A stretch of 64,000 nt of DNA from Psammoneis japonica. Taxonomy: Eukaryota. The notes under the pieces were generated by a model. The model did not search any database and was not told the DNA's origin. It saw only the letters and a program-made list of their open reading frames with translations. Position 1 is the first letter of the stretch, and every line of letters begins with the position of its first letter. Below are positions 10,470 to 45,593 of this stretch, piece after piece. The DNA lies in assembly GCA_008632985.1 (NCBI GenBank), contig QPGO01000012.1:744001-808000 (forward strand), given 5' to 3'. A program made the translations under genes and the position numbers.

Positions 10470-10654
10470 GTTGTTCTTGCACCAGAAATTGATCCAAACC
10501 CTGTGTTCTGAACTCACAACCCACAACCCCTGTGCACATGGCTTGCCAGGCTTCCCTGCAAGGGTGCCCTGAAACTTGTCATTGTGCACATTCCGCACAG
10601 TCTGGTGCATTGCCAATGCACAAATGTGAAGTTTTTGGGCTTGTCTTGTTGGGA

Positions 10655-22277: not shown

Positions 22278-22469
22278 CTTTGTCACCAGAGCATTTTGTG
22301 AGAGACGAGAGGCGAGAAAAACAACACCTTCCATTGACATCTGCGAGCGCAATGGTGGAGCACATGATGTGCATTTCCATTGCATTGCAGAAAAAGCCCT
22401 AAAGTGATCATTTGTTGACCGCAACCGTGGAGCAACAACATCTAAAACAATCGCCAGTCAAATCAGGTG

Positions 22470-22729
22470 TGGCTGGCAACGAGCATTGTGTGATGCGCTC
22501 CAACGGACAGTCTCGGACTTCAGTGCAACCGCAAAATTTTCGAAGTTGACAACCAACACAACCTGAACAAGTCAGAGCGATCCTTCAACAGTGGTCCATT
22601 TTCTTCAGTGTCAGCATGGCTGGCAACGAGCATTGCACCATGCGCTCCAACGGAAAGTCTCGGATTTTAGCGCAACAGCGAAATTTTCGAAGTTGACAAC
22701 CAACACGACCAGAACAGTCAGAGCGATCC
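22470..22729 (+). repeat. Two direct copies of a ~113-bp unit between divergent TE ORFs
   Basis: TGGCTGGCAACGAGCATTG...AAATTTTCGAAGTTGACAACCAACAC...GTCAGAGCGATCC at 22470..22583 and 22617..22729. Confidence 0.85.
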
Positions 22730-22739
22730 CACAATTTCA

Positions 22740-23204
22740 ATGGCGCTCCATTTTCACATGGATCAGAGGAAGAAACGGCGGGCCATGGAGACGACGATAA
22801 AGGGAGAAGAAGTCAAACTCAAAACTGCCAGCACCCTAGGAAAAAGGGGGCACACAAAAGCATGGATGAAAATTTGTGATGATCACCCCCCCAAGAGCTG
22901 TCGTGTTGTCGTCCTTGATTCCGACACTGGAGGTGAGTGTGAAACGCTTGTTTGCCGGGGATCAGTGATTGGGACAGATGATCGTCCGCCCACTTCATTC
23001 GTGCAAGCGGCTTTCCTTGAACACCCCGATCTTCAGGAAAAAATTGAGAGCGTGTGCAAGGCCATTGCTCAGTTGGAGCTTCAAGATGAAGACATGGAAG
23101 AAATGCAGGTCATTTTCCAGCAGATGTTGGTGAAGGAGTGTCAGAAGCAAGCTGCAAAGAACAAAAAGATGATTCGCTCTGTCTCAAGTTTCCGACGTTC
23201 TTGA
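22740..23204 (+). pseudogene. Transposon accessory ORF A, unknown function
   Basis: 154-aa protein-like ORF (PPTSFVQAAFLEHPDLQEKIE...) inside the TIRs; contains no Tyr. Confidence 0.5.
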
Positions 23205-23323
23205 GTGCCACCCACCGCAACCTCGGCACAGTCCTCATGGCGGCATCGGCTGCACTGTAGTGCCGACACCACCAGCCATCAATGCACTGCTAGAAATTGA
23301 TGTGCACGTCAGATGCTGCCATT

Positions 23324-24325
23324 TTACTTTTTCTTTTTACTCATCCTTTGTTCATCCGCATCCTCCATCCCGCGTTTGCATGCCTTCTTCACCTTCTTCT
23401 TCTCCTCTTCCTTCCGTTTTTCCTCAGCCTTGGCCCATCGTATCTGGCATTGTTTGATTTTCTTTAATCTCTTTGATTCAAGGAAATCAATGAACTTTTT
23501 GCGCCGGACCTCTTGGCAGATGCGGCGTCTAAAAACTGCCAGCTCAAACTGTTGATGCTCAAGGCATGAAGCATGCAACTGTGCGCCTGACATCCTCAAA
23601 TGCAGGCCATTCACCACATCCTCTCGGAGGAGCGGTTTTGCTGCAGACAAGTCAAAAACTGGCTCCCCACGATGGTTGTGTGTCTGCCTTGGATGCACCA
23701 GCAGATCACGCCTGAGTGCTTCCATTTCAAAGACTGATCTGTTTACATTGCATGACACTTGGGCCCTGTGGTCGATTGATTGCTCCTTGAACTGACAGAA
23801 TGGAACTTTGCGGAATTCTTCAATGTTTTTGTGTGCCATTTCCCATGCTTCTTTGGGAGTCATTTCATCGTCCGTCAGTGGTGGGATGCCGCTTTCCAAG
23901 TCTCCACGAACAATGATCCTTGCTTCACTGTTGGTCCAATCAATCCTTGGTTGCTTGACGGGTTCCAGTCCTGGGTGGGACTCCGAACATCAAATAAACG
24001 GCCAAGTTTGTGGTGCAATTGTGCCTCTTGCCACTCGACATTTTTGCAAGTGCGGCTGCCCCACGCAATTCTTAAGACATTGTAGAATCGCGCTGCAACA
24101 AAAAATGTCAAAAGTTGTTGGACGGATCGCTCAACAAGTGCACCACAAAATGACACAAAATTTCACAAAAGTCTCGTACAATTCTACGTGCGCGACATGC
24201 GGTGCGATCCAAAAAACTGTCGATGTCACAGTTCAGCAGTGCGAGGTCCCACCTAGAGCTGGAACGCGTCGCTTGGGCTTCTTGGGCTTCTTGCTCGGCG
24301 TGGGTGATGCCGACGGATTCATCAT
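23324..24325 (-). pseudogene. Transposon accessory ORF B (second-ORF type), interrupted by a MITE
   Basis: Removing 23957..24270 plus one TSD gives the continuous frame MMNPSASPTPSKKPKKPKQPRIDWTNSEAR...; two repeated (W/F)xxSxAxxxL/VxxD modules. Confidence 0.7.
23957..24270 (-). mobile_element. MITE (GACG...CGTC termini, 4-bp TSD GCTT), partly TpA-converted copy
   Basis: TIR GACGGGTTCCAGTCCTGGGTGGGAC and its inverted partner; GCTT at 23953..23956 and 24271..24274; reverse-complement homolog of 33262..33651 with an internal deletion. Confidence 0.9.
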
Positions 24326-24760
24326 CTTGCCGTTTCAATTTTTTGCGTTGAGCCGAGGATTCATGAGCGAAAAAGGCACAAAATCTCAAATCCATTGTTG
24401 TGTTCATCCTGAATAAAAATGTGTCGTTTTAATCCCGTCAAATCTATCGCAAAAAATGCATGGCGATGCATTGAGTTTACACGTCGCATCCAACATTGTA
24501 GAAGATTCTCGGTGTCCCACGGTGAGATTGCACGCGACTCTACACTCGCAGGGCCCTGCAGTAAATTCACAACTCATTGCCATTGCGAAATGTCCCGTAG
24601 AATTCGCAACTTCACTTTTAAAGATTTGCCCACCTTGCTTTGACACCACCATTGGCGAGACACACTTTGCACCAAGCGCTTCCATGATGAATGCCGGGTT
24701 TGGTCTTGGGCACATCGAGTGCTTGTTCAACTCTAACATGCTGCAGGATCATGTGTTGAC

Positions 24761-25414
24761 ATGCCTTGTGTCAAAAGTTTGGTGAGTTTTGAGGCTGCAC
24801 ACCGGTGCTTCGCAGGGAGCACACATGTGGCATGGAATCGCCTCGCATGCGCTCCACCCCATCTCCATGACGCCATGAATGGAGAAGGCAAATTAAAAAT
24901 AAAGCGTCGCAAAGATGTTCTTTCCCTCTGTCAAAAGATGCATGGCCTGGCACGGAACTTTGACGACAACACTGAAGAGTTTGGGGGACTAATTGACAAT
25001 GGACTGCCATGCCACCGCCCCGAGCATTTCTGCCATTTCTTGTTGATGCGGGCTGCTGATGGTGCCATGATGTTTGAAGATTGGATCCCAAACTCGATCA
25101 TCAGTGCTGAGGTGCGGGTTGCTTGTTTGACACTCATGTTGGATGAGCTGAACATTGAGTGCAATGACTGCTCGGATCCCCTTTTGTTTGAAGATTTTCC
25201 TCTTCCGTCAGTGGTGTTGATTGCATGTGGGCCTCGCGATTTGGATGCAAGCAGCCCTAGAATTCTCTCTGCCCTGCCCTGTTTTGACTGGGACTTTGGG
25301 ACGAGTTTTGATGGATTGATTTTCAATCTTGACACCCACGAAGTTTTTCATGGTGTTGTTTCGGGCAAGTTGTTTTTCGTCAACGAAAAAAGCATTGCAC
25401 TTCGCATGTTCTGA
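24761..25414 (+). pseudogene. Transposon cargo ORF C, unknown function
   Basis: 217-aa protein-like ORF within the TIRs; no Tyr, Cys/His-enriched. Confidence 0.4.
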
Positions 25415-25866
25415 AAGGGATTGTGGTGATGATGTGGATCAATGGTGTCTCAATTGTCTCAATGGAGCCAGGTGGGAAACTGTTGATGATGTTGGTCAGT
25501 GTCAGAGCTGTGTCGATGCCAGCAGTGGTGCTAGCAGCATTGTGCTGTGCCAGTGGTGTTGCTGACACCAGCAGCATTGTTGCCAAAGCCGGCATGAGAG
25601 CAACTTGCATTGCCAATTGCCGACACGCAGTGGCACCTGTCCGACACGATCCACATCTGTTCAAAACCAACGGACCATGTGCTTGCTGTCAATCATGATG
25701 CAACACAATTTTCCATCAATGCACATCATGTGTTTCCCAAATTTTAGCATGCTTGTTTTAGCGGGAATGGGATTGGCTGTCTCAACTGACAACTGGCGAA
25801 AATTTCAACTGCCGGAGCAACTCCGAGACTCCACAGCTGCTTTGCCAACATCTCACAATTCTCCAA

Positions 25867-27513
25867 ATGTCTGAACCTGCACTTGAGGATTGGGAGACAA
25901 AGCAATTGCTCCAAGAAGCAGAGAAGCTAAACACACCAAGAGACCAGATCTTGCACAGTCACCTGGCTTTTCGAAGTGCCGTTCTCGGCGGTGACAGAAG
26001 ACGTTTGTCCCAGAAGAAGTGGCCCCAATTCAAGTGTTCTACAATTGCTGCACATTGCAGCACGCTCTTGAAGCACAGTGTTGAGCCACCACCGTGCACT
26101 CTTTGCCTTTGCCAGGAATCCACTTCCTTAGATGCAGCACCCACCGAAGCACCAGCAGAGGATGCGGCACCGGCAGAGCATGCGGCACCAGCAGAAGACA
26201 CGGCACCGGCAGAGCATGCTGCAGCCGAAGCACCACCAAAGGAAGAACTCGAGGACGATGCTGAAGACGACAACCTCCTTCAAGGCATGAGCCGCCTTTT
26301 CAGCGCATCTGCCCCACCCCGTGGCCAGAATCCCCAACCGCCAGCCGCAGGAAGCCAACTGCCAGCCGTGGGAAGCCAACCGCCAGCCTTGGGAAGCCAA
26401 CCGCCAGCCTTGGGAAGCCCTCCATTGTCCATGGCATCCAACAGTGACACAAACAGTCCTCCTCCTGTGGGGGATCCGTCTCGTGGTGGCCGTGTCCATT
26501 TTGCTCCATCAACAAATGCCGCGAACCAGCACGGCCCACCCGCATTCTCTCCGGCAAGAGCCTGCAACTCTCCGGCAACGGCCTACAACCCCCCGGCAGC
26601 AGCCTGCAATGGCATGAGCCTTGCGCCAAATGCTGGCCATCTGCCAGCGAGTGGACACTCCTGTTCTGGGAACACATTGGAATCTTCGTTGGAATCCAGT
26701 GAGCAACACGTTTTGCTGTCGGGAATGTGGCAACACAACACACTCCCGAACTGGTTGTGTGAGAGCATGGGCGGCAGTGCCCACTCACCTTTTGTCATCA
26801 AGGTCAACCCTTCTGATGCAGAAAATCATCGAGAGTTTGCCATTCGCAAGCTCCGCCCCTTCTGTCACGGCACCTGCATGCGCTCAGGGTGTCACGTCCA
26901 GCACCCATGTGCATTTGAAGAAGACTGCAAATCTTTTCAAGCAAAACCTTTGGACAGCATCAACAACCTTCATTGCTGTGGAAATGTCCTTCCAGCATGT
27001 GAGGGGAGGAGCATCCTGGTCACAAGTGTGCTTCAGAGTGCATCAGTGGCTTGTCCAACCTGTCTTTACGATGGTCCCGCAGAGACCGCCGTTCAGCAAA
27101 TTGTCCGGCAAGCTGAGCCAATGACGATGAGTGAGACTCGCTGCAAACACACTCTTCTTCTTTTCCCTTTGAATTCAGAGCGATTGGATAATCGCACTCT
27201 TTCCACTGGACATGATTGCGTGATCGACCGCAAGGTGGTCCCTTTCGAAGAGAATGGCAACCCGCTTCCTGTCCAAGGGTGCTGTCGTCACCTGGACCAT
27301 TGCCGAAAAGGGGGGGATGGACATTGGGGGAGCTTGTCTCCCACAAAATGTTCAACGCCAAGTCCCACAAAATGCTCAACCGCCCAATCAATTCCGACGC
27401 CCCTTCTTTCTTTAGTTTCTCGGGAGCTTTTTTTCAACATCTTGAATTTTTCGATTTTATGTCTTACATCTATCCTCATCAATAACACACACACATGTTC
27501 ATATGATGTATAA
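25867..27513 (+). pseudogene. Transposon accessory ORF D with internal minisatellites
   Basis: 548-aa ORF from MSEPALEDWETKQLLQE; 18-bp (APAEDA/APAEHA) repeats at ~26137..26235, 21-bp (GSQPPAL) repeats at ~26338..26420, 24-bp duplication at ~27340..27385. Confidence 0.55.
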
Positions 27514-28033
27514 ACAAACCGATATTAACCGTCCTAATACTTGTGTACGTGTGTGCATTATACATTTATTTTTCGCACTTTGTACTTTGTACTGCGGTCG
27601 ACATAAGTGAAATGTCCAAATTTCTTGCTTTCGATGCTGATTGGCGTTGGATTGGCCGTTGGATTGATCGCCAATCGCCAACTTTGTCTCACTTTGTCTA
27701 GCTTCGCCAAAAATTCATATATGTGAATCGCATAAATCCCTAAATAACTTAATGCCATTGGCGATTTTGGCGATGTTGTCAAAATGTGAAAAAAAACTGG
27801 CGATAAATGATCATTTAACGAAGTCATCCAATGAACAAAAAAGACCGCATTAATGTACCTAATTCACGATGCTTTTTTTCTACGCGCGAGGCGACACAGT
27901 GTGGTTCAGCCCATAACCTCAAAAATGTGACTGGACTCGTGCGAATGAAACTCAGAACAACACCATGGCGGCATGGCTCCATTCATGAATACACTGTCAC
28001 TGGGACAATGTCACAGGGGTAAGAGCATTGACA

Positions 28034-33261: not shown

Positions 33262-33651
33262 GACGCGTTCCAGGTCTAGGTGGGACCTCGTACTGCTGAA
33301 CTGTGACATCGATAGTTTTTTGAATCACGTCGTATGTCGCGCACGTAGATTTCTACGTGATTTTTTCGATATTTTGTGTCATTTTACGGTACACTTATTG
33401 AGCGATCCGTCCAACAACTTTTGACATTTTTTGTTACAGCGCGATTCTATAATGTCTTAAGAATCGCGTAGGGCAGGCGCATTTGCAAAAACGTCGAGTG
33501 GCAAGAGGCATAATTGTACCACAAACTTGGCAGTTTATTTGATGTTGAAGATAAATGTATCCATTAATTAAATTCTCGTACTACGGAGCTCGCACGTAGA
33601 ATTCTACGGGCCCAATGTCACACGGAGTCCCACCTAGGACTGGAACCCGTC
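33262..33651 (+). mobile_element. MITE (GACG...CGTC termini, 4-bp TSD AAAT), essentially unconverted copy
   Basis: TIR GACGCGTTCCAGGTCTAGGTGGGAC versus right reverse complement GACGGGTTCCAGTCCTAGGTGGGAC; AAAT at 33258..33261 and 33652..33655; TpA-rich. Confidence 0.9.
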
Positions 33652-34151
33652 AAATGGACCTTGTTGATTTTCCCAGAGACCTGGATTGGCGAGGGAACGA
33701 TGGCCGTGGAAGACAGGACCTCAGAGTCAGACTGCCTCGTTGAAGCCAGCTCATCCGAAAGAGCTTCAAGGCACTTGTGCATGTCACGCAGTTCATCATC
33801 GCCACCACCCATGTCCGTGGAGTGCTGAGGCCATTGGGAGACGCAACTGAGCATCATTCCATTGCCCACAACAGACAGCTGAATGCCAGAAAGGTCCGTG
33901 GTGCAAACACCAGATGGAGCCACAACAAACAACATGACGTGATTGGTCTTGGTGACAGAATCCTTGCAAGTGGCTTGCAAGACCATGGGCTTGAAGCTCT
34001 TCTCCAACCCCCTCCTTGCCCACCACCACGCCCCTCCACCACAAGAGCAACACCAGCTCCATTCATGATGCCAGTGGCATCATTGTTGTTGGCAGGAGTT
34101 GGAGCCGACATGTTCATCTGACGAGTGCTGTCCAGGCCGCTGGAGAACAGC

Positions 34152-34427
34152 TGACAGGATTTGAACAGGATTTGGATGCGCGCGAAGTGTCGCGCGCTGT
34201 TTAGTTTACCGCGCACAGTTTTGTGTGCTTTAGTTCCGCGCGTTCACGCGCGATGTAGTTTGCTTTCGAGCCACAAGGCTCACAAGAATGATGACAGCAG
34301 CCCGATCACACCGACTTGCCCGTCTTTCGGCTCCTGCAACGGTCTCTGAGCGGAGACTCATCTGCCATTTAGACAGCAGTGAGGAGTCATTGTTTGAATT
34401 CTTGCCATTTGCCTTCAATTTCTGTCA
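34152..34427 (+). repeat. 5' LTR
   Basis: TGACAGG...TTCTGTCA; 14 transition differences from the 3' LTR. Confidence 0.95.
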
Positions 34428-34440
34428 GATTAACAGTCTT
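34428..34440 (+). promoter_or_regulatory. Putative primer-binding site complementary to the tRNA-Asn(GUU) anticodon arm
   Basis: GATTAACAGTC directly after the LTR is the reverse complement of GA-CTGTTAA-TC; no TGG (CCA-complementary) start. Confidence 0.6.
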
Positions 34441-35366
34441 GCTCATTGTCAACCCATTGAGCAACCGCCATCGTCGTCGTTGATTTACCAACGACGCCAT
34501 TTCAATTCTACGTGGACCTCCGTATATATTCTACATACATCGGCAAGTCTACGCGCATTCAATACCAGGGCATCGGCAGGAAGTTAACGTCACCGTCAAG
34601 TCTCCTTACCGCTGGATATCTGGATTGATTATACTACCTTTGATCGCTGAAGACATACATTCAACGGTCATATCCAAGTCTATCCTTGATCCTCATCCCT
34701 TGATATACCTATTCATCGGTTAACGGTCAAGAACCCTACATATTCAAGGATCTTCGTCGCTGAAGACATATATATATATACATATCTTCACGGCCAAGAA
34801 CCTGTACCCACTCTTCGGACTGCGGTTTTGCTGCCACTCTACAAGCACACCGAGTCCATTGTACCTGATCTACCCCGGACTGCTGGTGCTCTACAGTTCT
34901 ACTAGGTCCACGAGGATGACTGTGAGAGCAAGCAGCCGTGATTACAACCTGCGTTGGGGCGAGGGTGCTTTCCCGCGTTTGTTCGTTCGTCCACAGCGCC
35001 CAACGCCTGCGTCAACTGGCCAGCCTGATCGGGAAATCCAACCGACATAAAATAAGAACGGTTCGGGGGTCTTGTCCACCTCCAGTCAGCTTGCCTGCAG
35101 GGGTTTACAACCCGCCGCTCCGCTCGCAAGCAACCCAAAGCGCCGCTGGCTGCGGGTTCGGACGTGCCGGCACAACTCTGCAGACCGGACAGGAAGTTTA
35201 GCACTTGACAACGAACGGGATAACAAAGCCCGGCGACTTCTGATTTTAAGATGGTTCAAGATTTCAAGTCAAGTCCATTTCAAGTCAAGCCTGTTCTCAC
35301 CCAAGTTTCGAGTCTGCCTTCGCTTCCCAACCCGAATTGATTGTCCTGACACCACTTTTATCTACC

Positions 35367-38300
35367 ATGGTTCTCACTCGTCAGCAACAAACCGATGGTT
35401 TCGAGCACGTTGTTGGAACCGTGCTTGCCCAAGGTGCTGGGAGTCCTCTTCGTTTGGCTTTGGCCCAAGACGGCACGGACTCGCATCAGGAACTGTTCAC
35501 GTTCACACCGTCCCAAATCGACTCGCTTGAGTGCGACAACGGCACTGGTGCAATCCCTTTGCCCCGTGGTTGTAAGAACATGTTAGCAGCACTAGTTAGC
35601 CTGTGCATTGTCAAAGCACACAAGGGTCTTGACGTTGCCAACGACTCCTCTTTGTTCGCGCATGACGAGTTCCTTGCCCACCGCCTCAGCCCGGACTGCA
35701 TGTCCTCTGTGTCCATCGGCAGCTCACCCCTTGCACCTCCACATGTCACCAACCCGACCAAGGCATGCGACCCGGTGCGAGACTTCAAGCGAGGCATCAA
35801 GCGTGATCCCACCGCTTTCACGGCTCTCAAATCCGACAAGCAGTGGCACACTTGGCACACCTCACTTGTGGCACAAGCCCGTGCCCAAGACGTCGAGTGC
35901 ATTCTAGACTCGTCGTACAAACCGACCAGCCCCGAAGACAAACTGCTCTTTGCTGAACAGCAAAAGTGCATGTTCGCCGTCTTCGAACGCATCCTTCTCA
36001 CCGACAAGGGCAAGGCTCTCATTCGCGAAAATGTGGGGTCTTCTGACGCACAGACCGTCTGCCGCTCCTTGTCTGAGTGCGCGCTTGCCTCCACCCGTGC
36101 ATCTGTCGAGTCCTCCACCCTGCTCACGTACCTCACCACCGCACGTCTTGGTGATGGCACTTGGAAAGGCCCGACCCACGGGTTCATCCTTCATTGGCAA
36201 GATCAGTTGCGCAAGTGCGAGGCGCTCATCCCTGCCAGTGACCACTTCTCTGAAGGACAGAAGCGCGTCATGCTCGAGAATGCCGTGCACCCTGTCGAGG
36301 AACTCCGTGCTGTCAAGAACCAAGCTGATCAGCACCGCACGCAGAGTGGCAAGAGCCTCACATGCGATCAATGCTGTGGCTTGCTCCTCTCCGCGGCAGC
36401 TCAGTGCGACAGCACGTTTCAACCCAAGACGACACCCAGAGCTCCCCGACGCGCCACATGCGCACATGACGTCTGCTCCGAGGAACCGTCCGACGATGTG
36501 TTCTACGACATTGACAGCGACGTTGACGTCCTTCAAGCCAATGCTGCCTGCACCCGCGGTCCCAGCCTCACCGGTGTCCAATGGAGACGTCTCCCTCCCG
36601 ACCACCAACGGCTCTGGGATTCGTTGCCCGATTCCTCCAAGGCGATCATCCTTGAGCATTCTGGTCCGCCTCCCTGCAACCCGCGAGCCAGTGACTGCCA
36701 TGAGTCTGTTACGGCCAACCTTCACGACCAACACCTTGGGAGTGACGGTGATGTCAACTTGTCCAACACGACTCCTGCTGACTGTGGTGACCCCGCCACA
36801 CATGTGGACGCCACTTCGGACAATCCCATCCTGGCGCACCTCACCAAGCGCAAGCCACTGCCACCCGGTGATCTGCAACGTCTGTTGTCTCCTAACCAAG
36901 CCCCCAATGCCAGTCGACCGGGGCCATCCGCCGCTTCCTCTACCCCGCCAGCTTCTGCAGATAACACAGAACTTAACGGCCGCACTTGCCGCCGCGTCAA
37001 CAACCACAATGTCATTTGCTCTGCCTCTGCTCATCGCTCCACACGCACTGGCGCTCTAGTCGATCGTGGGGCCAACGGCGGCATTGCTGGCGACGACGTT
37101 CGCGTCATCGCACGCACCTCTCGCCAAGTCGACGTTCAGGGCATTGACGATCATCAATTGGTGGACATCCCCATTGTCACCGCTGGTGCCGTCATTGAGA
37201 CCCAGCGTGGTCCCGTCATCGCCATCCTCCATCAGCGCGCATGCACGGGAAAGGGCAAGACCATCCATTCCTGCGGCCAGCTCGAATGGCACAAACAGGA
37301 TGTCAACGATCGCTCTGTCAAGGTGCCCAACGGCTTGCAACGCATTGCCACTCCTGATGGCTGTGTCATCCCCATTGACATCAAGGCTGGCCTGCCTTGT
37401 GTTGCCATGCGACCTTACACTGACGCCGAATGGACACCCTGCCCCATGTCATCCTCACCGGTGATGACACATGGGACCCTTCCGTCCTCGATCACTCTGT
37501 CACTGACGACGACCAGTGGTACGACGCGATCTCTGACCTACAGGACGATCCCACTGCCAACCCATTTGACGAATGCGGCAACTACCGTCACCGTGTCGTT
37601 GTCAACGAGACCATCTTGTCCGCTTCCTTGTCTGCCGATCACGCGTCCGCCCTCGATGATCACCTCATTCCGAACGACGACGTGTTCTACGAGTGTCATC
37701 TGCATGCGATTGACCCCCAGGGCGATGACGTTCCACCTCCGGAGCGCACTGTACAGCCCAAGGACCCCCCCTTCGAGTCTCTTCGGCCTTGCTTTGGCTT
37801 CCCACCTGCCGATGCGGTCCGTCGTACTTTTGACTGCACCACGCAGTGCGCCCGCATGCCCGCCGGTACACACCTTCGCAAGGCCTGCAAATCACCCAAC
37901 CCCGCCCTTAATGTGCACCGCCGCAACGAGCCTGTCGCCACTGACACCGTTTGTGCCGACACCCCGGCCGTCGACTCTGGTTGCACCAGCGCCCAACTGT
38001 TTGTTGGCACCGAGTCTACCGTCACTGACGTCTGCGGCACTAAGACGGACAAAGAGTTTGTCAACACACTCGAGGATCAGATCCGTGAACGTGGTGCCCC
38101 ATCCAGCGACCGTGCTCAAGTTGAGATCAGCAACAAAGTGCTCGGGATCCTACGCGCCCTCTTCATCTCCAGCTGGCAAAGTGAGCCTCACCAGCAACAC
38201 CAAAACTTTGCCGAACGTCGACACCAGACCGTGAAGCGCATGGCGAACACTGTCATGGACCGTTTTGGTTCGCCCGCCCACACATGGCTGCTGGCGCTCA

Positions 38301-41080
38301 TGTGCGTGTGCTTCATCCTCAACCACACAGCGTCCCCACGTCTCCACTGGCGCACACCCCTCGAGACTCTCACTGGATCCACCCCGGACATCAGCCCATT
38401 GCTTCGCTTTCACTGGTGGGAACCAGTGTGCTTCCACCTCGATGATTCCGATTGGCCGTCCGAATCCCGTGAGTTGCGTGGACGCTTCGTTGGCATTGCT
38501 GAGCACGTCGGCCACCAGATGACCTTCAAGATCCTATCTGACGAGACTCAGAAGATCCTCTGCCGGTCCAACGTTCGCTCCGCTGCCCCCGATCCTGCCG
38601 TTCAAAACCTGCGTCTTGATCCTCCTGATGGGGAGCCACCTGAACCCATCATCAAATCTCGCCATGACGACAACCCCATCGATTCTCCTGATGGGGAGAT
38701 CAGGACACCCAAGATGCCAGTTTTCGATCCGCAAGACATCATTGGACGTACCTTCCTCATGCAGCCACAAGAGGACGGACAACGCCACAGAGCTCGCATC
38801 GTCAAGGCCGTCGAAGACCACGAATGGAAAGTGAACGGCAATCCCGAGCTCACTAAGTTCGTCTGCTCTGTCAACAATGACGAATGCGAGGAAGTCCTTG
38901 CCCACAATGACATCATGAATCACATTGAGCAAGAAGACGAAGACACCACCATTTGGAAATTTCGACGCATCGTGTCACACGAAGGACCTCTGAAGCCTCA
39001 CGACCCAACCTGGAAAGGCTCAAGCTACAACATCATGCTTGAATGGGAAAGTGGGGAGATCACGTCCGAGCCTCTTGCCATCATCGCCAAGGACGACCCC
39101 GTCACCTGTGCCATCTATGCACGAGAGAACGGACTCCTAGACACGGATGGCTGGAAGCGGTTCCGCACTATCGCGAGGCGCCAAAAGAAGCTATTTCGCA
39201 TGGCCAGCCAAGCCAAGCTTCGCTCCTTCCGCACTGCACCTCGCTACAAGTGCGGATACGAAGTTCCCCGGAACTACAAACACGCCATGTCACTGGACGA
39301 ACGCAACGGCAACCGCAAGTGGGGAGACACAACTAATCTCGAGATGGACCAACTCGACGAATACGAAGTCTTCCATGACTGCGGGCCCTTCAAGTCTTCC
39401 ACTCCTCCTGCGGGACACAAGAAGATCCGAGTGCACCTGGTGTTCGACGTGAAACACGACGGTCGCCACAAGGCACGACTCGTGGCCGACGGGCACCTCA
39501 CGGACGTACCTGTCGACAGTGTCTACTCGGGAGTAGTCTCCCTCCGTGGCCTTCGGCTGATGATTTTCCTGGCTGAACTCAACGAGCTGGAGACATGGGC
39601 CACCGACATTGGCAATGCCCACCTTGAAGCCACCACCAAGGAGAAGCTTTACATTGCAGCTGGACCCGAATTTGGCAAACTCGAAGGACACATCCTTGTC
39701 ATCCACAAGGCACTGTATGGACTGCGCAGCTCCGGTCTCCGCTGGCACGAGCGCTTCGCCGACTGCCTGCGAGCTGAAGGCTTCTTCCCCTGCCGCGCCG
39801 AACCCGACATTTGGATGCGCAGGAACGGCGACCACTGTGAATGCATTGGCGTTTATGTGGATGACCTCGCCATTGCCATGAAAGACCCTCAATCTTTCAT
39901 CGACACTCTCACGGAAAAGTGCAAGTTCAAGCTCAAGGGTGCAGGACCCATTGAGTTCCATCTGGGTTGCGACTTTTCCCGGGACCCCGACGGAACCTTG
40001 TGCCTGTCTCCGCGCAAGTACATCGAGCGCATGGTCGACAGCTACGCCCGATTGTTTGGGGAGAAACCTGCCACCAACACCCTGTCACCTCTAGAGAAGG
40101 GTGACCACCCCGAACTGGACACTTCCGAACTGCTGGGACCCGATGGCATTCACAAGTTCCAGTCTCTTGTTGGTTCACTCCAATGGGCAGTGTCCCTTGG
40201 TCGAATTGACATTACCACGGCTGTCATGTCACTCTCTAGCTTCCGAGCTGCACCCCGTCAAGGCCACTTGGATCGTGCCAAACGCGTCTGTGGGCACCTC
40301 TCCAAGATGCGACACGGTGCTCTCCGCGTTCGTGCGGAAGAGCCCGACCATTCGGATCTCCCTGCTCCGGCCTATGAATGGATGCATTCCGTGTGTGGTG
40401 AAGCAGAAGAGATGGTCCCGAAGGACGCTCCACCGCCCCTTGGCAAGTTCGTCACTACCACCCACTGCGTCGATGCAAACTTGTGCCATTGCATGCTCAC
40501 CGGACGCTCTGTCATGGGAATGCTCCACTTCCTCAACAAATTCCCGGCTGATTGGTTCTCCAAGAAACAAGCCACCGTGGAGACTGCAACCTGCGGATCT
40601 GAATTTGTTGCCGCAAGGAATTGTGTTGAGCAGATTGTCGACCTGCGCATCACCCTGCGCCACCTTGGCGTCCCGATCCGTAATGTCAGTTACATGTTCG
40701 GTGACAACAAGTCGGTTGTAGACAGTGCCACCATCCCGCACTCCAAGTTACACAAGCGACACACCGCACTGTCGTTCCACCGTGTGCGTGAGGCAATTGC
40801 CTCTGGTTACCTTGAGTTCCACTTCATCGAAGGCTCCCGCAACCCTGCTGACATTCTCAGCAAGCATTGGGGTTGCTCCCAAATCTGGGACCTTCTCCGC
40901 CCCCTCATGTTCTGGAACTTCATCCCATCCGAAGTCGAATCTGTTTCTGTAGCTCCTCAAGCAAACTGGGGAGTGACAGGATTTGAACAGGATTTGGATG
41001 CGCGCGAAGTGTCGCGCGCTGTTTGGTTTGCCGTGCACAGTTTTGTGTGCTTTAGTTCCGCGCGTTCACGCGCGATGTAG
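35367..41080 (+). pseudogene. Copia gag-pol polyprotein, Tyr-eroded, with one -1 frameshift at ~37433
   Basis: Gag FKRGIKRDP; protease LVDRGANGG; integrase VATDTV...SDRAQVE...QNFAERR; RT HKARLVADG, KALYGLRSSG, GVYVDD; RNase H VDAN..ETATCGSEF..GDNKSV..NPADILSK. Confidence 0.92.
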
Positions 41081-41249
41081 TTTGCTTTCGAGCCACAAGG
41101 CTCACAAGAATAATGACAGTAGCCCGATTGTGCCGACTTGCCCATCTTTCGGCTCCTGCAACGGTCTCTGAGCGGAGACTCATCTGCCATTTAGACAGCA
41201 GCAAGGAGTTGTTGTTTGAATTCTTGCCATTTGCCTTCAATTTCTGTCA
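40974..41249 (+). repeat. 3' LTR
   Basis: Direct repeat of 34152..34427, same length, followed by the TSD. Confidence 0.95.
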
Positions 41250-42604
41250 ACAGCTGCTCGTCGTCGGAATCATCGGCACCTGGTGAATGCACGGCGAGAA
41301 CAACAACAGCGCGCGCAGCGCGCGGTCAAAATGAAGGTGCAAGCATCAGCAAAGATGTGACGTCACTTCCAATTGTCACACATTCATGCAGGAACACAAT
41401 CAACAATCGACACTCACCGTCAGGGTTCTCGTTCATCGTGCGACGAAGATTGAACCTGGTTTCGTCTTTGAGCCTGTGCAAGCCAGTGCGGAATCTGTCC
41501 AGTGGACAGCGCATGAACTCTGCGTGCATCTGCTGGATCTCTTTTGGCATCGCGCCAGGGCTGATCTTGCCCTCCATCAACATCTCCTTCAGGACTTTAC
41601 AGGCGGCAGATCCCTTGTGCCATTGTGGATGAACAAGGGGGGCAGCGGCCTCCGTGTCAAGAACTGATTTGGTTCGTTGATTGAGTTTGGGCATGTTGTT
41701 TTTTTTGTTTTCTCTTTTTTATGACAGGATGGATGGTGCAAAGTCAAGAGGCGTCAAGATCCACACTCGCATTGATGGTCAGCAACGAGAACCCCATTTT
41801 TGAATGGGTCACGGCCAACCCACCTCACCACTTTCCGCGGGATGCTGCTCTTTTCAAATCTGAAAACCCCAACCGTCAAAATGAGATTTGAGAGAATCCC
41901 AACCGCCAAAAGTGAGAAAGGGCCTCTTGACATTGTGGGGGGCCCTGGATTCCCTCAAGTCCACCCTAAAAACGTTCCGAGACCGCACTGAAATCGTTCG
42001 CAAATCACACAAAATGATTTCCGGCTCCAGAACGATGACTTTGGGCCGTCTCAAATGAGGAATGATTGGCTTGAATGCAGCCACAGCTCATGATGACAAT
42101 GGCACTAACAGCAAACTTTGGCGCGCAGTTTCATTCTGTCTTTTCAGCAGCATGTTCACGCGTGCTCTTCATCCATGAAAAGTCGTTTTCATTTTGATTT
42201 GCAGACAAACGCGTTTCTTTGAAGCCCTGCCATTGATGGATCATGGGATTGAAATGCTGTGTCACATGTTGCAGCTCTGCTGCTGTGTCAGTTGAGCCAA
42301 TGGCATGCCTTGGAGCAGTCAGTGTGCTGGTTCCGGTTGAGATGAGGACACCCAAACTTGCCTTTTGCGTTCGTTTTGAAGTCACCATTCTGAAACCGCA
42401 CCCGAATCGCATTTTTTTCGCACTTTCGTCACACACCAGGGAATCTCACGAAAGGCCTCTTCAAATGAGAACCCCAACTGCACCAAGATGACAAAACACA
42501 ACTCTCAACAAACAACTGCTCTAACAGCAGAGACCAGTGGCACATGTGGCACAATTGACAAAAGTTTAAAATGACACTTGGGTGTGCACTGGTGGTTGCC
42601 AATC

Positions 42605-43490
42605 ATGCGTCTGCCCAAAGAGGCACTGGAGTGCTTGGCACAGACAACAATTCAGAAGCCAAAAGGGTCACCCACAGCATGGAAATGACGGCTCGCTTCA
42701 TGCTTCTGTACCCCACAAGAAGTGGCATCTGAGTTGCGGGGGCTTCTGGAAGACGACGGAAAAATGCCGTGAGGATTTTTGCCCATTCACCCACTGTGCA
42801 CCCTTTGCTTTCTCAAATTGCATGAATCTGAGACAGTCGTTGCCGGAATCTGTAACAAAATTCATGAAGACACGCTGAGAAAATGGGTTTGGGTCGGCAC
42901 TCAACTTGTTGGACAGTTGGATTTGGTGCGTGTCATTCCAGACAAGCTCCCACACATGAGACAAGTGAACTGGCACCTTTTTTAGATTCACTGGGAAGAC
43001 CGCTTCATTGGCGACAATGGCAGCACTTGTTTGGTGACACTCAACAGCACTGATTTCAGAATCTACGAGCCGTCGCCATTCAATCCAATGTGGCTCTCCC
43101 ACAAATTCCACGGTGCTGGGCTGTGGTGTGAAATTGGAACATGCACTCAAACAGGGTGGATTGTTTGGGTCAATGGACCATGCCCAGCTGGGTTGCCGGA
43201 TCTGAGCATTGCTCGCGAATGGATCATTGAAGAGCTTTAAGACGGCAAGATGCACCTGGCTGCCAGCACAGCTTGACTCCATCCGGCCTAAGAAATGCAG
43301 ACAAGGCCATGAAAACAATGGCAAGGGCAAGGCATGAGGCTGTGAATGGATGGTTCAAGCATTTCGGAACACTTCAGAAAAGACACCGCCACGCGAAGGA
43401 AACACACTGCCATGTGTTTCATGCCGTGGCCAACATCACACAGTTGGCCCTCATGATGGGCTGCTCACCATTTGATGTCGAGCATTTGAC
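42605..43490 (+). pseudogene. Second DDE_Tnp_4-like (PIF/Harbinger-like) transposase, degraded
   Basis: FLKLHESE..TLRKWVW; IHWEDRF..VTLNSTDFRIYEP..WLSHKFHGAGLWCEIG..WVNGPCPAG..D; RARHEAVNGWFKHF..RHRH..VFHAVANITQ; TGA stops consistent with CGA decay; probable intron at ~42926..42984. Confidence 0.85.
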
Positions 43491-43499
43491 GGTTGAAAC

Positions 43500-45290
43500 A
43501 ACAGCAAAAAGTGTTTTTTTGCCAAAGTGTTGTTGCCATGAACGTTTCTCAATCTCATCGTCGCTGCAACGCTCTCGCGAGCGAGCACAAGGAAAGAGAG
43601 CCGAGAACCGACCCTGTTGCGTGCCATGTGGCGGGAAATTTGAAAATGCACCGATGACATGATTGTTGTGCCTGCTCATTGCCCCAAGCATCATCATGCT
43701 GCAATGTTGACATCATCATCTGCCTGGCAGGCTTGTCTGCGATTCCTCATGCTGGGTGTGTCCAGCATGAGGGGCCTGGCTCGATTGTTTTGGGCTTTTG
43801 TGCTTTTGGTTGTTGTTCTTGAGACGCGACGTGATCGAGCCAGCAAGAGAATCTTGAAATTTGCCAACACGAGTGGACAAGCAAATGCTTTTGGAAATGA
43901 AATCAGACAACATTGGTGGTGTCGTTGAAGGCTTTTCACATCGAGGCTGTGATTTGGGTGTTTGGCATCTGCGGCAATGCATGTGCTGCTGCTGGTGGCA
44001 TCTGTCTGCACCCCCAATGCACAGGACGCACATGGCACCTGGCGCCACGTGTCATCAAGTTGTGCCACAGCAGCACAATTGTTTTTTCCAACAGCTCCCT
44101 GATCATCTGTCAGGTTGTCTCAAGGGTTTGATGCACAGGTGGTGGGTTCTTTGCTTCAGCAGTCATTGTCGTTGTTTCACAATTTTGTGGCTAAAGAAGG
44201 TTGCCTGCTCTTTGCTCCATTGCAGGCTTTGCTCACCTTGGGGACAAGGTTAGACTGGTGGACTTGCTCATTGCTTTGTCACAAAGTGCGTGCCATGTGG
44301 TGCTGGCACAACACATGTGAGTCTTCTCATTCTTGCATGTGTCTCATGTGGACAGCCCAGAAAGCTGTTCACCTGATGCGACCAAATGTGGTGTGCAGAG
44401 AGCACAAGCATGGGGCTGTGTGACAATGTGAAGCAGAGCTTTCTAGAGCAAACTGGGCTTGAAAATGGCCTCTCTGCACATGTGCCCAGCACACATGTCA
44501 GCCACCGCCACATTTTGTTCATCCTCTCTCTGCCACCAGGCCACCATGTGCAAAGCAGCAAAACACACATCTTTGGATGATCCTGCCATCAAGTTGGGTC
44601 ATCTGAAAAAAAGCATGGGGTTTGACAAACAGTGCCTGCCCATCGCATCAGCCAGCCAAAGAGCCCAGTTTCATGCACTGGCTCCTTGTGCACATGGCAG
44701 AGCAGTGCTGTTCAGCCATGCCCAGGAAGAAGTGTGGCTCATTTTGAGAGGGTGTGGCTCTCAAATTGGGTGATTGCAGAGAAGTGTCTGGAGGAGAGCC
44801 TGTCAATGCATGTCATCTGCCCCCAACAGCAGCACAGCAAAGCAAGCATGAGGATGGTGGCATGACTTGTGGCCAATGTTGCATGATGTAAAATGCAAAT
44901 GATCAGGGTTTTGACGTTGCGACACAAAATTTGAATGAGCAGGATTTTGACACAGTTCCCCACTCACACAAAAAGGCTCCATTTTTGCAGACCATTTCCT
45001 CTTCAGATCTCACACAACAGCTTTGGCCAATGGCTCATGACATCACTCTGATTGCTGCAACCAAAATGCTCAACAGATGTTTCTGCCAGAAGTTGGGCCT
45101 GGTGAGATGCATGCTCCGAACATGTTGCACAAGAGAGAGCCAGGCTTGAGGCTCTTTTTCTTGACCAGCAGCTCCTGCAAGACATGACCGTGTTGCTAGA
45201 ATTCCATCCTTTTTTGGATACGCTGTTGCTTCTTGAGGACTGGAGGGCAGTGTGCATTGACATCAAGTTGAGGCAAAGTCCATCACATCA
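43500..45290. mobile_element. TpA/CpG-depleted repeat relic
   Basis: TG/CA-rich composition; only spurious ORFs; sharp return to normal composition near 45290. Confidence 0.55.
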
Positions 45291-45593
45291 GCTAAAAACG
45301 AAACGCGTTCAGTCGTGGCTCGTCTGTATGCGTCTAATTTTATTCACGAGTGACTGAAAAGCAAGATATAACTGTCGGTAACCGATTGTGTCACGCCGTG
45401 ACGTTGAAACACTTTCGAAAAATCAAAAATCACCAAAGCAAGGTCAATGATGTTCTTTCATCTTGTCCCGCTTGCGTTGGCCTTCCCCCATCCAGGAATG
45501 CCGACGGCTGACTTGACACCTACTCTCTAGACTATTACTTATTACACGACGACACCACTGGCAGTTTCATAGTTTGATCTTTCTATTGGAACC

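Follow-up and report, generated by a model that had tools for sequence, protein, structure and literature searches.

The only account so far of TpA-specific hypermutation is a 2026 preprint that deals with an unrelated alga, Bigelowiella natans (Mettrop et al., bioRxiv 10.64898/2026.01.13.699255). Experiments with mutation-accumulation lines, sequenced with Illumina technology, demonstrated conversion of TpA to TpG or CpA in NCLDV and virophage DNA that had integrated into the genome: two viral regions acquired 231 de novo mutations, 230 of which are A>G or T>C, the GC-biased mutations all fall on TpA, the rate is ~6e-7 per site per generation, and the activity is episodic between lines. An ADAT2-like adenine deaminase was proposed for this signature, and the preference of ADARs for a 5' U is stated in the Discussion (Mettrop et al.). 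This preprint supersedes the remark of an earlier note on the present locus that no published description of such a process was known to its author; a literature search found no report of TpA hypermutation in diatoms.

RIP in ascomycete fungi also wrecks mobile elements in place through transitions in a dinucleotide context, leaves host genes intact and gives rise to blocks with sharp boundaries and a skewed dinucleotide content. However, RIP makes C:G to T:A changes, mostly CpA to TpA, with TpA going up and GC down, creates stop codons and needs duplication, whereas in the diatom locus analyzed here TpA is destroyed, GC goes up, TAA and TAG are removed, a single-copy relic (maybe once repeated) is hit and an abundant repeat (maybe young) is not. 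When the transitions expected of RIP (C:G to T:A, with TpA enriched) were sought in this locus, TG and CA were found to be enriched instead. Decay of 5mC yields the same products (TpG and CpA) in the same territory, but acts on C in CpG rather than on T:A in TpA and is ~21 times slower than TpA loss in the copia LTRs described below. With ADAR hyperediting and APOBEC/AID editing of viruses and retroelements in animals, the diatom process would share enzymatic deamination, nearest-neighbor preference and action against foreign nucleic acid; ADAR, however, targets dsRNA and APOBEC the C of single-stranded DNA, whereas here the change affects A:T in chromosomal DNA that is already integrated, and a DNA transposon is hit too.

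The window, that is, the whole 64-kb stretch of DNA that was analyzed, very probably records an enzymatic, DNA-level process that converts T:A to C:G at 5'-TA-3' after insertion, in element interiors, with host genes spared; this assessment covers the process as described and not the deaminase step considered below. The TpA landscape is bimodal, with 42 of the 127 bins of 500 nt showing TpA obs/exp below 0.2. The TpA-poor bins form contiguous blocks in which TG and CA obs/exp are 1.5-2.0, compared to 1.1-1.3 elsewhere, and include all 20 CpG-poor bins. The neighboring host genes are normal, as had been claimed: in nine host ORFs, TpA obs/exp is 0.44-0.80 and Tyr accounts for 2.3-4.9% of the residues, and a 14-kb host stretch has TpA obs/exp 0.59 vs 0.03-0.24 in element interiors. 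The confinement of the process to mobile-element DNA and its absence from the adjacent host genes are thus borne out. A young affected element and the older relic that it invaded comprise the following features.

33651..34151, no strand assigned: left part of an older, TA-free relic invaded by copia (0 TA in 501 nt; CpG obs/exp 0.40)
34147-34151 and 41250-41254, both flanks of the element: copia target duplication of 5 nt, ACAGC
34152..34427, plus strand: copia 5' LTR with TG...CA ends (276 nt, 95% identity to the 3' LTR)
34428..35050, plus strand: untranslated copia 5' leader, spared by hypermutation (41 TA, obs/exp 1.0)
35367..37432, plus strand: copia polyprotein frame 1, gag to the start of pol, heavily hit (tblastn with relative P0001)
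37433..41080, plus strand: copia polyprotein frame 2, with integrase, RVT_2 reverse transcriptase and RNase H region
40974..41249, plus strand: copia 3' LTR, compared as a pair with the 5' LTR
41255..45300, no strand assigned: right part of the older relic, with TA back to normal from ~45300
42986-43479, plus strand: second Harbinger-type transposase remnant, within the older relic (tblastn matches of DDE_Tnp_4 relatives)

The element at 34152-41249 is a Ty1/copia LTR retrotransposon with a gag-pol polyprotein, LTRs with TG...CA ends, a 5-nt target duplication and an RVT_2 match in frame 2 (E = 1.7e-28); the integrase domain was not separately detected with Pfam. Frame 2 shows 68% identity to P0001 (tblastn), and the best 120 of 1,899 matches, to polyproteins of ~1,900 aa, show 60-72% identity over 1011 residues. 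The description of this element as otherwise intact is not quite right: compared to contigs with 28,032 of the 36,899 summed depth, the window copy has a 1-nt deletion at 37431 and therefore a split polyprotein frame, with frame 2 offset. This frameshifted state is common to ~24% of the summed contig depth.

Loss of conserved tyrosines is the most conspicuous feature of the copia proteins. Among 581 columns conserved in at least 90% of 60 full-length relatives, the window copy matches the consensus at 538 and differs at 43. Tyr is retained at only 10 of 30 such columns, whereas the remaining residues are retained at 528 of 551 (Fisher p = 3e-18), each of them at a level of 84% or higher. The 20 lost tyrosines (13 Y>C, 4 Y>H, 1 Y>R and 2 Y>F) are now Cys or His in 17 cases. 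A single step from TA to TG or CA accounts for 20 of the 43 differences, including these 17, a CpG step for three more and other transitions for two. The conserved Tyr columns of frame 1 (n = 9) contain 2 Y, 6 C and one other residue, and those of frame 2 (n = 30) contain 10 Y, 11 C, 6 H, 2 F and one other; the outcome at Tyr codons is Cys in 21 cases vs His in 6 (p = 0.006). The window copy retains Lys and Asn at 35 of 39 columns but Tyr at only 10 of 30 (p = 1.6e-6), so that the AA context is not hit. All ten copia peptides quoted in the earlier note are present in the window translations, and Tyr is indeed the copia norm at the Cys and His sites, with five relatives showing it at most of them; a few relatives carry another residue, for example F at the second change of THCVDANLCH and H in HWGHQQVW of P0002. 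The CAC at 39620 and the TGC at 40592 replace Tyr columns that are conserved at 100% and 98%, respectively.

The depletion of TA extends to all three codon phases (0.30, 0.23 and 0.18 of the median of the 60 relatives), and the TpA obs/exp of the copia coding region, 0.23, is the lowest among the 81 elements compared (median ~0.64). TpA obs/exp is 0.17 in frame 1, where Tyr makes up 0.6% and Cys 3.8% of the residues, and 0.26 in frame 2. CpG, by contrast, is still abundant, as noted earlier (obs/exp 0.92 in the copia interior); the direction is opposite to that of fungal RIP and the process is distinct from 5mC decay, in agreement with the original proposal. The leader shows 11, 21 and 8 TA per 200 nt, with 14, 18 and 9 expected, and the contigs of the family differ over it at 0-11 letters.

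The two LTRs of the copia element provide a clock. They differ at 14 columns, in every case by a transition, with 12 columns falling on TA/TG/CA sites and two on CG/TG/CA sites (CpG type); the ~424 other sites show no change. The 12 TA-type columns consist of four with TA vs TG or CA and eight that form four TG-vs-CA pairs, for which the ancestor was likely TA; altogether the pair differs at 8 TA sites. This pattern indicates that the damage was made in place, on DNA, after insertion. The maximum likelihood estimate of the hit probability per LTR TA is 0.64 (0.41-0.82), which matches the Tyr loss inside the element (23 to 27 of 39); the 5' LTR retains 5 TA (obs/exp 0.31). The hit probability per CpG is 0.048, and, in this indirect estimate from one element, the rate ranking places TpA ~21-fold above CpG and more than 144-fold above other sites. 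Taken together with the Tyr columns and the paralogues described below, the LTRs support a mutational change from T:A to C:G at TpA, on both strands of the DNA, that reflects neither selection nor artefact.

The process affects a DNA transposon as well, so that no RNA step is needed. The relevant features are as follows.

21100..27784, no strand assigned: Harbinger/PIF-like DNA transposon with flanking inverted repeats and a nearly TA-free interior (~21450-27400)
21360..22280, minus strand: DDE_Tnp_4 transposase relic of this element (tblastn, relatives with PF13359)
23986..24270, plus strand: short repeat copy nested in the hit interior, hypermutated compared to its paralogue at 33262..33546
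33262..33546, minus strand: paralogue of the short repeat, unhit, in a TA-normal, very abundant stretch

We classify the element at 21100-27784 as a predicted PIF/Harbinger DNA transposon on the basis of its DDE_Tnp_4 relatives and terminal inverted repeats (31 nt, 87%, at 21100-21130 and 27754-27784); it also contains subterminal AGACAAAGTG repeats. The transposase relic has 17 relatives (E 7.5e-34 to 1.7e-13), 14 of which contain PF13359; the ORF itself has no Pfam match. The transposase motifs reported earlier lie at 21625-21774 (minus strand) and 43172-43192 (plus strand), within the two DDE_Tnp_4 relics, and the loss of Tyr that had been claimed for both transposases is apparent at conserved columns: one of five is kept in the first, with four now Cys, and none of three in the second. 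The ends of the element keep TA (11, 13, 12 and 7 per 100 nt at 21001-21400; 13 at 27501-27600), compared to 0-1 per 100 nt in the interior. The two copies of the nested repeat (23986-24270 vs 33546-33262) are 89.8% identical and differ at 31 positions, 11 of them of the TA type, with TA always in the 33262-33546 copy (p = 0.001); the hit copy retains 6 TA and its paralogue 18.

The remaining TA-poor blocks appear to be older. In 41250-45000, within the relic that surrounds the copia element, 16 TA are left (obs/exp 0.07; CpG 0.53), and loose contig ends at 33555-33579 mark a repeat junction on its left side. The other blocks are listed below.

1501..3000, no strand assigned: block poor in TA and CpG, with a Laminin_G_3 gene on either side (7 TA, obs/exp 0.07; CpG 0.21)
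8501..9500, no strand assigned: TA-poor block (2 TA, obs/exp 0.03; CpG 0.31)
10501..17000, no strand assigned: largest block, with TpA and CpG nearly erased (12 TA, obs/exp 0.03; 50 CG, 0.12)
59501..60500, no strand assigned: TA-poor block (1 TA, obs/exp 0.02; CpG 0.25)

The largest block is complex sequence with no simple repeat and contains 727 TG and 737 CA. None of 107 ORFs scanned has a credible Pfam match, no family was found for it in the Atlas, and a full HMMER scan gave only two weak multi-stretch matches; its mobile-element nature is therefore assumed, and the DIRS-like identity suggested for the part at 13.4-14.0 kb finds no backing in these searches. TG and CA are equally frequent in the old blocks (727 vs 737, 514 vs 545 and 396 vs 401), and neighboring TG and CA sites show no strand coherence (same-type fraction 0.50-0.53), so that a processive single-strand deaminase is not indicated.

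The earlier note had described the process as repeat-targeted, and this wording is not supported. According to read depth (58.6), the relic at 25001-27673 is present once only, and yet it is TA-poor, whereas the abundant repeat at 33.0-33.6 kb is TA-normal (summed contig depth of 138,987 for 33005-33671; 11 and 15 TA per 200 nt); furthermore, the copia leader and the Harbinger-like ends are spared, and the nested copy of the short repeat lost 11 TAs. Targeting therefore appears to track the locus or the element interior, not repetitiveness or the repeat family. The single-copy stretch at 25001-27673 may once have been repeated, and the highly repeated one at 33005-33671 may be young.

Contigs from a public read run (X1) reproduce 25001-27673 and 44050-45000 at k-mer depths of 58.6 and 56.4, with 6 and 3 letters differing from the window, respectively. 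These contigs, 3.4-5.1 kb long, match the TA-poor stretches at 99.7-99.8%; the run shares its sample with three tiny runs, and possibly with the assembly, and thus is not fully independent. All 6 differences within the single-copy 25001-27673 are of the TA or CpG type, a hint of de novo change. Contigs of the tiny runs match the copia interior at ~95-99%. Partly hit copies are found in two unrelated metagenome assemblies: in one (P0093), 7 of 39 Tyr columns carry C and 4 carry H, and in the other (L074), 2 of 20 carry C and 5 carry H. In many environmental relatives, CpG has decayed while TpA has been retained. Because the contigs of the tiny runs are so similar and the frameshift is shared by ~24% of the depth, part of the copia changes could predate the window copy and stem from a master copy that was mutated already; the LTR argument is the only direct evidence against this reading.

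As the most likely lesion behind the process we tentatively propose deamination of adenine to inosine in the TpA context by a TadA/ADAT2-like deaminase, a possibility that falls somewhat short of an even chance. The same process might instead start from thymine, with a TET/JBP-type oxidase acting on TpA in silenced DNA to yield 5-hydroxymethyl- or 5-formyluracil, an oxidized base that mispairs with G and so causes T>C (A>G on the other strand). TpA being palindromic, the sequence cannot tell which base is hit; the equal TG and CA outcomes in the old blocks fit a thymine lesion, as do the enrichment of dinoflagellate 5hmU at TpA and the T>C bias of 5-formyluracil. Nevertheless, the sole published proposal for this signature is an ADAT2-like adenine deaminase (Mettrop et al.), and the excess of Cys (21) over His (6) could reflect a T-A-C preference of such an enzyme, although it is equally compatible with other readings; we regard the thymine route as unlikely. 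Editing before insertion, of RNA or cDNA (by an ADAR-like A>I activity or in reverse-transcription intermediates) and then fixed by retrotransposition, is very unlikely. When retroviruses are edited on their minus-strand cDNA, editing is lowest immediately 3' of the primer-binding site, a pattern that resembles the spared copia leader. ADARs prefer a 5' U according to the preprint Discussion (Mettrop et al.). However, the LTRs of one copia differ at 8 TA sites, the DNA transposon and its nested repeat are hit, both strands are affected, the single-copy relic is TA/TG-polymorphic between window and contig, and saturation of the old blocks requires long action in place. RNA hyperediting of the ADAR type implies identical LTRs and unhit DNA transposons, and the reverse was found for both. 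Error-prone patch repair of heterochromatin by a pol-eta-like polymerase (WA>WG), with no dedicated editing enzyme, would explain the regional confinement if the repair were chromatin-specific, and the WA signature of pol-eta includes A>G at TA. This is an even slighter possibility: the AA context is spared (Lys and Asn 35/39 vs Tyr 10/30), transversions or other changes are missing among the ~424 other LTR sites, and the hit probability of 0.64 per site is far above polymerase error levels. A pol-eta footprint with TA and AA both mutated was thus sought and not found (p = 1.6e-6).

The chance that modified TpA and CpG were misread as TG or CA during base calling or assembly, the true sequence being TA and CG, we consider just as slight as that of pol-eta repair. 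The affected dinucleotides are those expected to carry modifications, the TA-poor and CpG-poor bins coincide, and neither the platform used to sequence the assembly and run X1 nor the library type of the latter is on record. Against such an artefact argue the contigs of depth ~58 that repeat the TA-poor stretches at 99.7-99.8%, which would be hard to obtain with noisy long reads, the essentially complete erasure over 6.5 kb (12 TA) where miscalls are partial, the retention of copia CpGs alongside TpA loss, the partly hit copies in the two unrelated metagenome assemblies and the calling of the same changes from Illumina reads of the B. natans mutation-accumulation lines (Mettrop et al.). The least probable explanation is intrinsic composition or selection, under which the family would avoid TA through codon usage or evasion of a TA-sensing factor, with Cys and His being normal. 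In an environmental relative (L030) with an intact 403-codon frame, each of the 15 TA belongs to a Tyr codon and silent sites are free of TA; TA avoidance under selection thus exists in the clade, and part of the silent-site deficit could be ancestral. However, the replaced tyrosines occupy columns that are invariant in 60-120 relatives, the LTRs of one copy differ at TA sites, non-coding relics are TA-free, and the paralogue asymmetry is 11 to 0.

By analogy, then, we take the diatom process to be one of the same kind as the TpA-restricted hypermutation of B. natans (Mettrop et al.). In both, A>G and T>C changes at TpA give TpG and CpA (here in the LTRs, Tyr columns and paralogues), the changes are confined to foreign DNA in an otherwise normal genome, and the rate is orders of magnitude over background (here more than 144-fold, from the LTR clock). 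TpA-poor, CpA- and TpG-rich genomic clusters, here 42 of 127 bins, are another common trait, as is the enrichment of TpA-poor coding sequences for DDE and reverse-transcriptase domains. The differences involve the host, here a diatom (stramenopile) rather than a chlorarachniophyte (rhizarian), and the targets, here an LTR retrotransposon, Harbinger-type transposons and other relics rather than giant-virus inserts. Erasure proceeds here to completion (obs/exp 0.03 over 6.5 kb vs 0.45 in the B. natans NCLDV region) and, unlike in B. natans, is coupled to later CpG loss; interior-only action bound to the locus rather than the family is not reported for B. natans in the accessible text. Here the footprint alone is seen, whereas de novo mutations were observed in B. 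natans.

Under the proposed mechanism, TA would become TG or CA depending on the strand hit. Loss of TpA is much faster than CpG decay: the young copia has lost ~64% of its TpA with CpG intact, and older relics have lost essentially all TpA and then most CpG. The targeting signal might be a chromatin state or a transcript-derived guide over element interiors but not over non-coding ends. That the copia leader and the Harbinger-like transposon ends were spared weighs against the process as described. Conversion of Tyr codons to Cys and His wrecks the proteins, whereas open reading frames persist because TAA and TAG cannot arise. We infer that the process serves genome defence, although the same footprint would be expected if it arose as a by-product of heterochromatin repair. 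What the diatom locus adds to the known biology of TpA hypermutation are the spared leader and ends, the targeting of the locus rather than the family and the ~21-fold faster loss of TpA than of CpG.

Divided into 500-nt bins, the window shows a bimodal TpA distribution, with observed/expected ratios below 0.2 in 42 of 127 bins and of at least 0.35 in 68. The low-TpA bins cluster as sharply bounded blocks:

1501-3000: 7 TA; TpA observed/expected 0.07, CpG observed/expected 0.21
8501-9500: 2 TA; TpA 0.03, CpG 0.31
10501-17000: 12 TA; TpA 0.03, CpG 0.12
21501-27000: 46 TA; TpA 0.13, CpG 0.69
41250-45000: 16 TA; TpA 0.07, CpG 0.53
59501-60500: 1 TA; TpA 0.02, CpG 0.25

These blocks consist of complex sequence, not simple repeats, and their TG and CA dinucleotides reach observed/expected ratios of 1.5-2.0, compared with 1.1-1.3 in host DNA. 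All 20 CpG-poor bins lie within TpA-poor bins, which indicates that a fast loss of TpA came first and the loss of CpG after it, an order that fits silenced, methylated DNA.

The window itself is eukaryotic, with one 250-N gap (63566-63815), and its host genes are long and intron-poor, with TpA observed/expected of 0.44-0.80 and 2.3-4.9% Tyr in the ORFs. The encoded host proteins are two of the Laminin_G_3 family, a subtilase, a bestrophin, an FSH1-RWD-GTPase fusion, two TPR_12 proteins, an LRR protein and a jacalin/RING protein. The fusion gene is as follows:

47036-49852, minus strand: single 938-aa ORF joining an FSH1 serine hydrolase, an RWD domain and an Obg/YchF-like GTPase

The top named relatives of the fusion protein are all from diatoms (Fragilaria crotonensis at 59%, then Seminavis, Epithemia, Cylindrotheca and Nitzschia), which places the host among the diatoms. 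The same architecture is present in the listed relatives, the named ones being diatoms only, and the Protein Atlas additionally assigns it to euglenozoan and chlorophyte clusters. The Laminin_G_3 genes (57-1177 and 3437-4553) are arranged in tandem, with 70% DNA identity and the TA/CpG-poor block 1501-3000 between them, and the TPR_12 (kinesin-light-chain-like) genes (50587-51697 and 56460-57570) are in inverted orientation and 68% identical across 1.1 kb.

The Ty1/copia element at 34152-41249 sits within an older TA-free relic (33.6-45.3 kb). It contains an RVT_2 domain, is flanked by a 5-nt target duplication (ACAGC) and has the following parts:

34152-34427 and 40974-41249: LTRs, 276 nt each, 95% identical, with TG...CA ends
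35367-37432 and 37433-41080: polyprotein, in two frames in the window copy

Among the best 120 of 1,899 matches, the element is 60-72% identical across 1011 residues to single-ORF metagenome polyproteins of about 1,900 aa. The frame split is caused by the loss of 1 nt from a G run at 37431, a deletion that is absent from contigs accounting for 28,032 of 36,899 of the summed depth.

The window copy was aligned to 60 full-length relatives, and columns with at least 90% agreement were treated as conserved. It agrees with the relatives at 538 of the 581 conserved columns, and the 43 differences include 13 replacements of Tyr by Cys, 4 by His, 1 by Arg and 2 by Phe. Thus, Tyr is retained at only 10 of 30 conserved columns compared with at least 84% for each other residue (for example, Ala 38/38 and Gly 59/61; Fisher p = 3e-18). 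By single-step origin, 20 of the differences are TA>TG or TA>CA changes, 3 are CpG changes, 2 are other transitions and 6 are transversions; the remaining 12 are multi-step. Relative to the median of the 60 relatives, TA is reduced to 0.30, 0.23 and 0.18 in the three codon phases, and depletion in all three is the prediction of a mutational cause. The coding TpA observed/expected ratio (0.23) is the lowest among the 81 elements compared (median about 0.64), CpG stands at 0.92, and the two frames contain 0.6% and 1.5% Tyr against the relatives' median of 3.8%. These figures bear out three observations of the earlier note, namely the conversion of conserved Tyr to Cys or His, the abundance of CpG in the copia element, and the normal Tyr and TpA of the host genes.

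The LTR pair dates this damage relative to insertion. The two LTRs differ in 14 columns, by transitions only: in 4 columns TA in one LTR faces TG or CA in the other, 8 columns form 4 TG-versus-CA pairs (including one CACA versus TGTG), 2 are CpG-type, and there are no differences in the approximately 424 remaining sites. Given a per-site CpG hit probability of 0.048, only about 0.03 TG-versus-CA pairs would be expected to derive from CG, so that TA is the likely ancestor of these pairs. The maximum likelihood estimate of the hit probability per TA per LTR is 0.64 (0.41-0.82), which agrees with the loss of 23 to 27 of 39 conserved Tyr inside the element; the internal damage therefore requires no inherited component. 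On this estimate, TpA sites change about 21 times as fast as CpG and more than 144 times as fast as other sites. Because the LTRs are the same at integration and now differ, the damage arose in place, on DNA, after insertion.

The process is not confined to retrotransposons, as seen in the following DNA transposon sequences:

21360-22280, minus strand: DDE_Tnp_4 (PIF/Harbinger) transposase relic
42986-43479, plus strand: second DDE_Tnp_4 (PIF/Harbinger) transposase relic
21100-21130 and 27754-27784: inverted repeats of the Harbinger-like element, accompanied by subterminal repeats

The first relic keeps 1 of 5 conserved Tyr (the other 4 are Cys) and the second none of 3, so both transposases were correctly recognized as hit in the earlier note. 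Since a DNA transposon lacks an RNA stage and is hit nonetheless, the process acts on DNA. The core of the original interpretation is upheld: mobile DNA undergoes a TpA-specific hypermutation that acts at the DNA level and on both strands.

The proposal that repeats as such are the target lacks support in that form. The copia leader (34428-35050, 623 nt), part of an abundant family and near-identical to the family contigs, contains 41 TA (observed/expected 1.0), whereas both LTRs and the coding sequence are hit. Likewise, the Harbinger-like element has TA at expectation over some 350-400 nt of each end and 0-1 TA per 100 nt in the interior, which spans the region between the 3' ends of the transposase relic and of the ORF at 25762-27513. 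A short repeat nested in this interior (23986-24270) lost TA at 11 sites that are kept in the copy at 33262-33546, with no case of the reverse (p = 0.001; 6 versus 18 TA), the latter copy being part of a TA-normal region with very high summed depth. The TA-poor stretch 25001-27673 is single copy in the reads. The spared leader and ends, the repeat pair with its unhit abundant member, and the hit single-copy stretch indicate that targeting follows the locus or the element interior rather than the sequence family. As the targeting signal, either a guide derived from transcripts or a chromatin domain would fit.

Several additional features were observed in this region. The spared leader segment 34436-35056 is flanked by GT and AG, small-run contigs start or end at 34433 and 35052, and the segment may be an intron of the element RNA or a gene-conversion tract. 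The stretch 33005-33671 has the top summed contig depth in the 20 kb examined (138,987 versus about 58 for unique DNA) and normal TpA; this abundant repeat, whose end is a junction close to 33555-33579, is apparently unhit. A multi-copy tandem array of approximately 178-nt units (28330-29053) seems to be partly hit, since in 12 of the 40 window-contig differences listed a TA of a deeper contig is matched by CA or TG in the window.

Reads support the bases. Deep contigs from a public sequencing run, X1 (k-mer depth 58.6 and 56.4), reproduce the TA-poor stretches 25001-27673 and 44050-45000 with 6 and 3 other letters, respectively, which is strong support for the TA-poor sequence not being an artefact, with the qualification that X1 is not fully independent of the assembly and may come from the same sample. 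In the single-copy stretch 25001-27673, all 6 differences between window and contig are TA-type (at a TA/TG/CA site) or CpG-type (at a CG/TG/CA site). Among the 40 window-contig differences listed (482 more exist), 16 are TA-type, 12 CpG-type, 6 other transitions and 6 transversions.

The older relics are largely beyond recognition by homology. The TA-poor blocks (about 21 kb) contain 107 ORFs of 90 aa or more, all of which scored under the curated Pfam cut-offs, with no credible match; a Protein Atlas search with 13895-14275 (minus strand) gave no usable match; a HMMER scan of 1.84 billion representatives with 13242-13655 (minus strand) gave only 2 weak multi-stretch matches; and a search of 10.4-17.1 kb for YxDD-type motifs gave a single unconvincing match. 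The 'DIRS-like' label once attached to one relic is accordingly not confirmed. Around the older relic at 33.6-45.3 kb, only 10-nt chance matches were found as inverted repeats. Because TAA and TAG are erased, long spurious ORFs are common in the TA-free relics (for example, 11286-12242, 16194-17129 and 25762-27513), and gene calling could annotate them as orphan genes.

Similar damage is found in environmental relatives from other assemblies. In P0093, an ENA metagenome protein from the copia clade of the window element, 7 of 39 conserved Tyr columns hold Cys and 4 hold His, and a metagenome locus of this clade (L074:2-1972) has 2 Cys and 5 His at 20 Tyr columns, TpA observed/expected of 0.31 and one in-frame stop; both are partly hit copies. 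Among 80 metagenome loci of relatives, only 2 of 1,426 windows are TA-poor, so the footprint is not general in the copia clade, with the caveat that one search pattern needed the Tyr of TVETATYG and was thus biased against hit copies. Another locus, L030:3-1211, contains an intact 403-codon copia frame in which all 15 TA are in Tyr codons, with none at codon positions 2-3 or 3-1 against about 38 expected from relatives, and 39 TA in the 820-nt flank. This lineage looks like one that purged silent TA under selection.

With respect to the chemistry, the AA context is unhit, Lys and Asn being retained at 35 of 39 columns, which argues against pol-eta-type WA errors. The old blocks contain TG and CA outcomes in equal measure, and in a neighbour test the same-type fraction is 0.50-0.53 there, as in host DNA; neighbouring outcomes are thus uncorrelated, with no sign of long single-strand processivity. 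All 5 adjacent TATA sites examined changed coherently, becoming CACA or TGTG, but this number is too small for a claim of processivity. Cys replaced Tyr 21 times and His did so 6 times (p = 0.006), with Cys only in the first 3 kb and 13 Cys in a row before the first His (p = 0.01, post hoc), a bias that may come from sequence context (T-A-C) rather than strand. An apparent flanking-base preference (survival lowest at ATAN and highest at CTAG) was rejected, being confounded by the higher G+C of the element and at odds with the equal loss of TAT and TAC codons. Because TpA is palindromic, adenine deamination and thymine oxidation leave the same sequence outcome.

Contrary to the earlier note, which knew of no published description, a process of the same kind has been reported in a bioRxiv preprint on Bigelowiella natans (10.64898/2026.01.13.699255). 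According to this preprint, 231 of 302 nuclear single-nucleotide mutations in mutation accumulation lines fell in integrated NCLDV and virophage regions, 230 of these 231 were A>G or T>C, and all these GC-biased mutations were on TpA, at a rate of about 6e-7 per site per generation and in 11 of 15 lines. The same text describes 324 TpA-poor CDS enriched in DDE and reverse-transcriptase domains and 124 clusters of TpA-poor, CpA+TpG-rich windows, and its authors propose an ADAT2-like adenine deaminase; a term look-up in this text found no mention of diatoms, stramenopiles or CpG. In the literature on diatom mutation rates, transposons and methyltransferases, searched mostly outside subscription journals, no diatom TpA hypermutation was found, and term look-ups in PMC6604790, 10.64898/2026.07.24.739820, PMC2806351 and 10.1101/2025.10.24.684338 found no mention of it. 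One of the papers covered reports that many diatoms carry DNMT4, related to the fungal RIP factor RID, a connection that is a lead only. RIP mutates in the reverse direction, and CpG decay, ADAR editing and APOBEC editing are each distinct from the process described here. The diatom process therefore belongs to a very recently defined kind and places it in a second, ecologically major lineage; compared with B. natans, the footprint is stronger here and brings new constraints on timing, rate and targeting.

A broader reading, which we consider rather unlikely as a whole, is that a dedicated and ancient defence by DNA editing is common to diatoms and chlorarachniophytes, being directed to the interiors of elements and deaminating the A of TpA. 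Small RNAs derived from transcripts, or a chromatin mark over transcription units, would act as the guide, and this would explain why leaders and terminal repeats are spared, why a repeat is hit only if it is nested in a hit element and why a single-copy insert can be hit. Elements would counter by ridding their coding regions of silent TA, the pattern seen in L030. If true, this shared defence would amount to a eukaryotic arms race in one dinucleotide, with a scope like that of RIP or CpG/ZAP.

TpA-specific, GC-increasing hypermutation of foreign DNA has been in the literature only since 2026, from one rhizarian alga. The present evidence adds constraints beyond published work: the mutations arise in place once the element has inserted, they accumulate about 21 times as fast as methyl-CpG decay, they fall on interiors with leaders and ends spared, and their targeting is bound to the locus, not to the family. 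Such a process distorts the insertion dates that LTR divergence gives for diatom transposons, conceals old elements from homology searches (0/107 ORFs with a credible Pfam match) and, by erasing TAA and TAG, creates long false ORFs. A natural TpA-directed A-to-G DNA editor would also be of interest to builders of base editors. A second, distant lineage permits a comparative hunt for the enzyme among genes that are common to hypermutators and absent from footprint-free species. That a diatom carries this footprint, in far stronger form and on ordinary transposons, means that the process is not peculiar to a single species, and it may be widespread in the SAR supergroup, home of the ocean's main primary producers.
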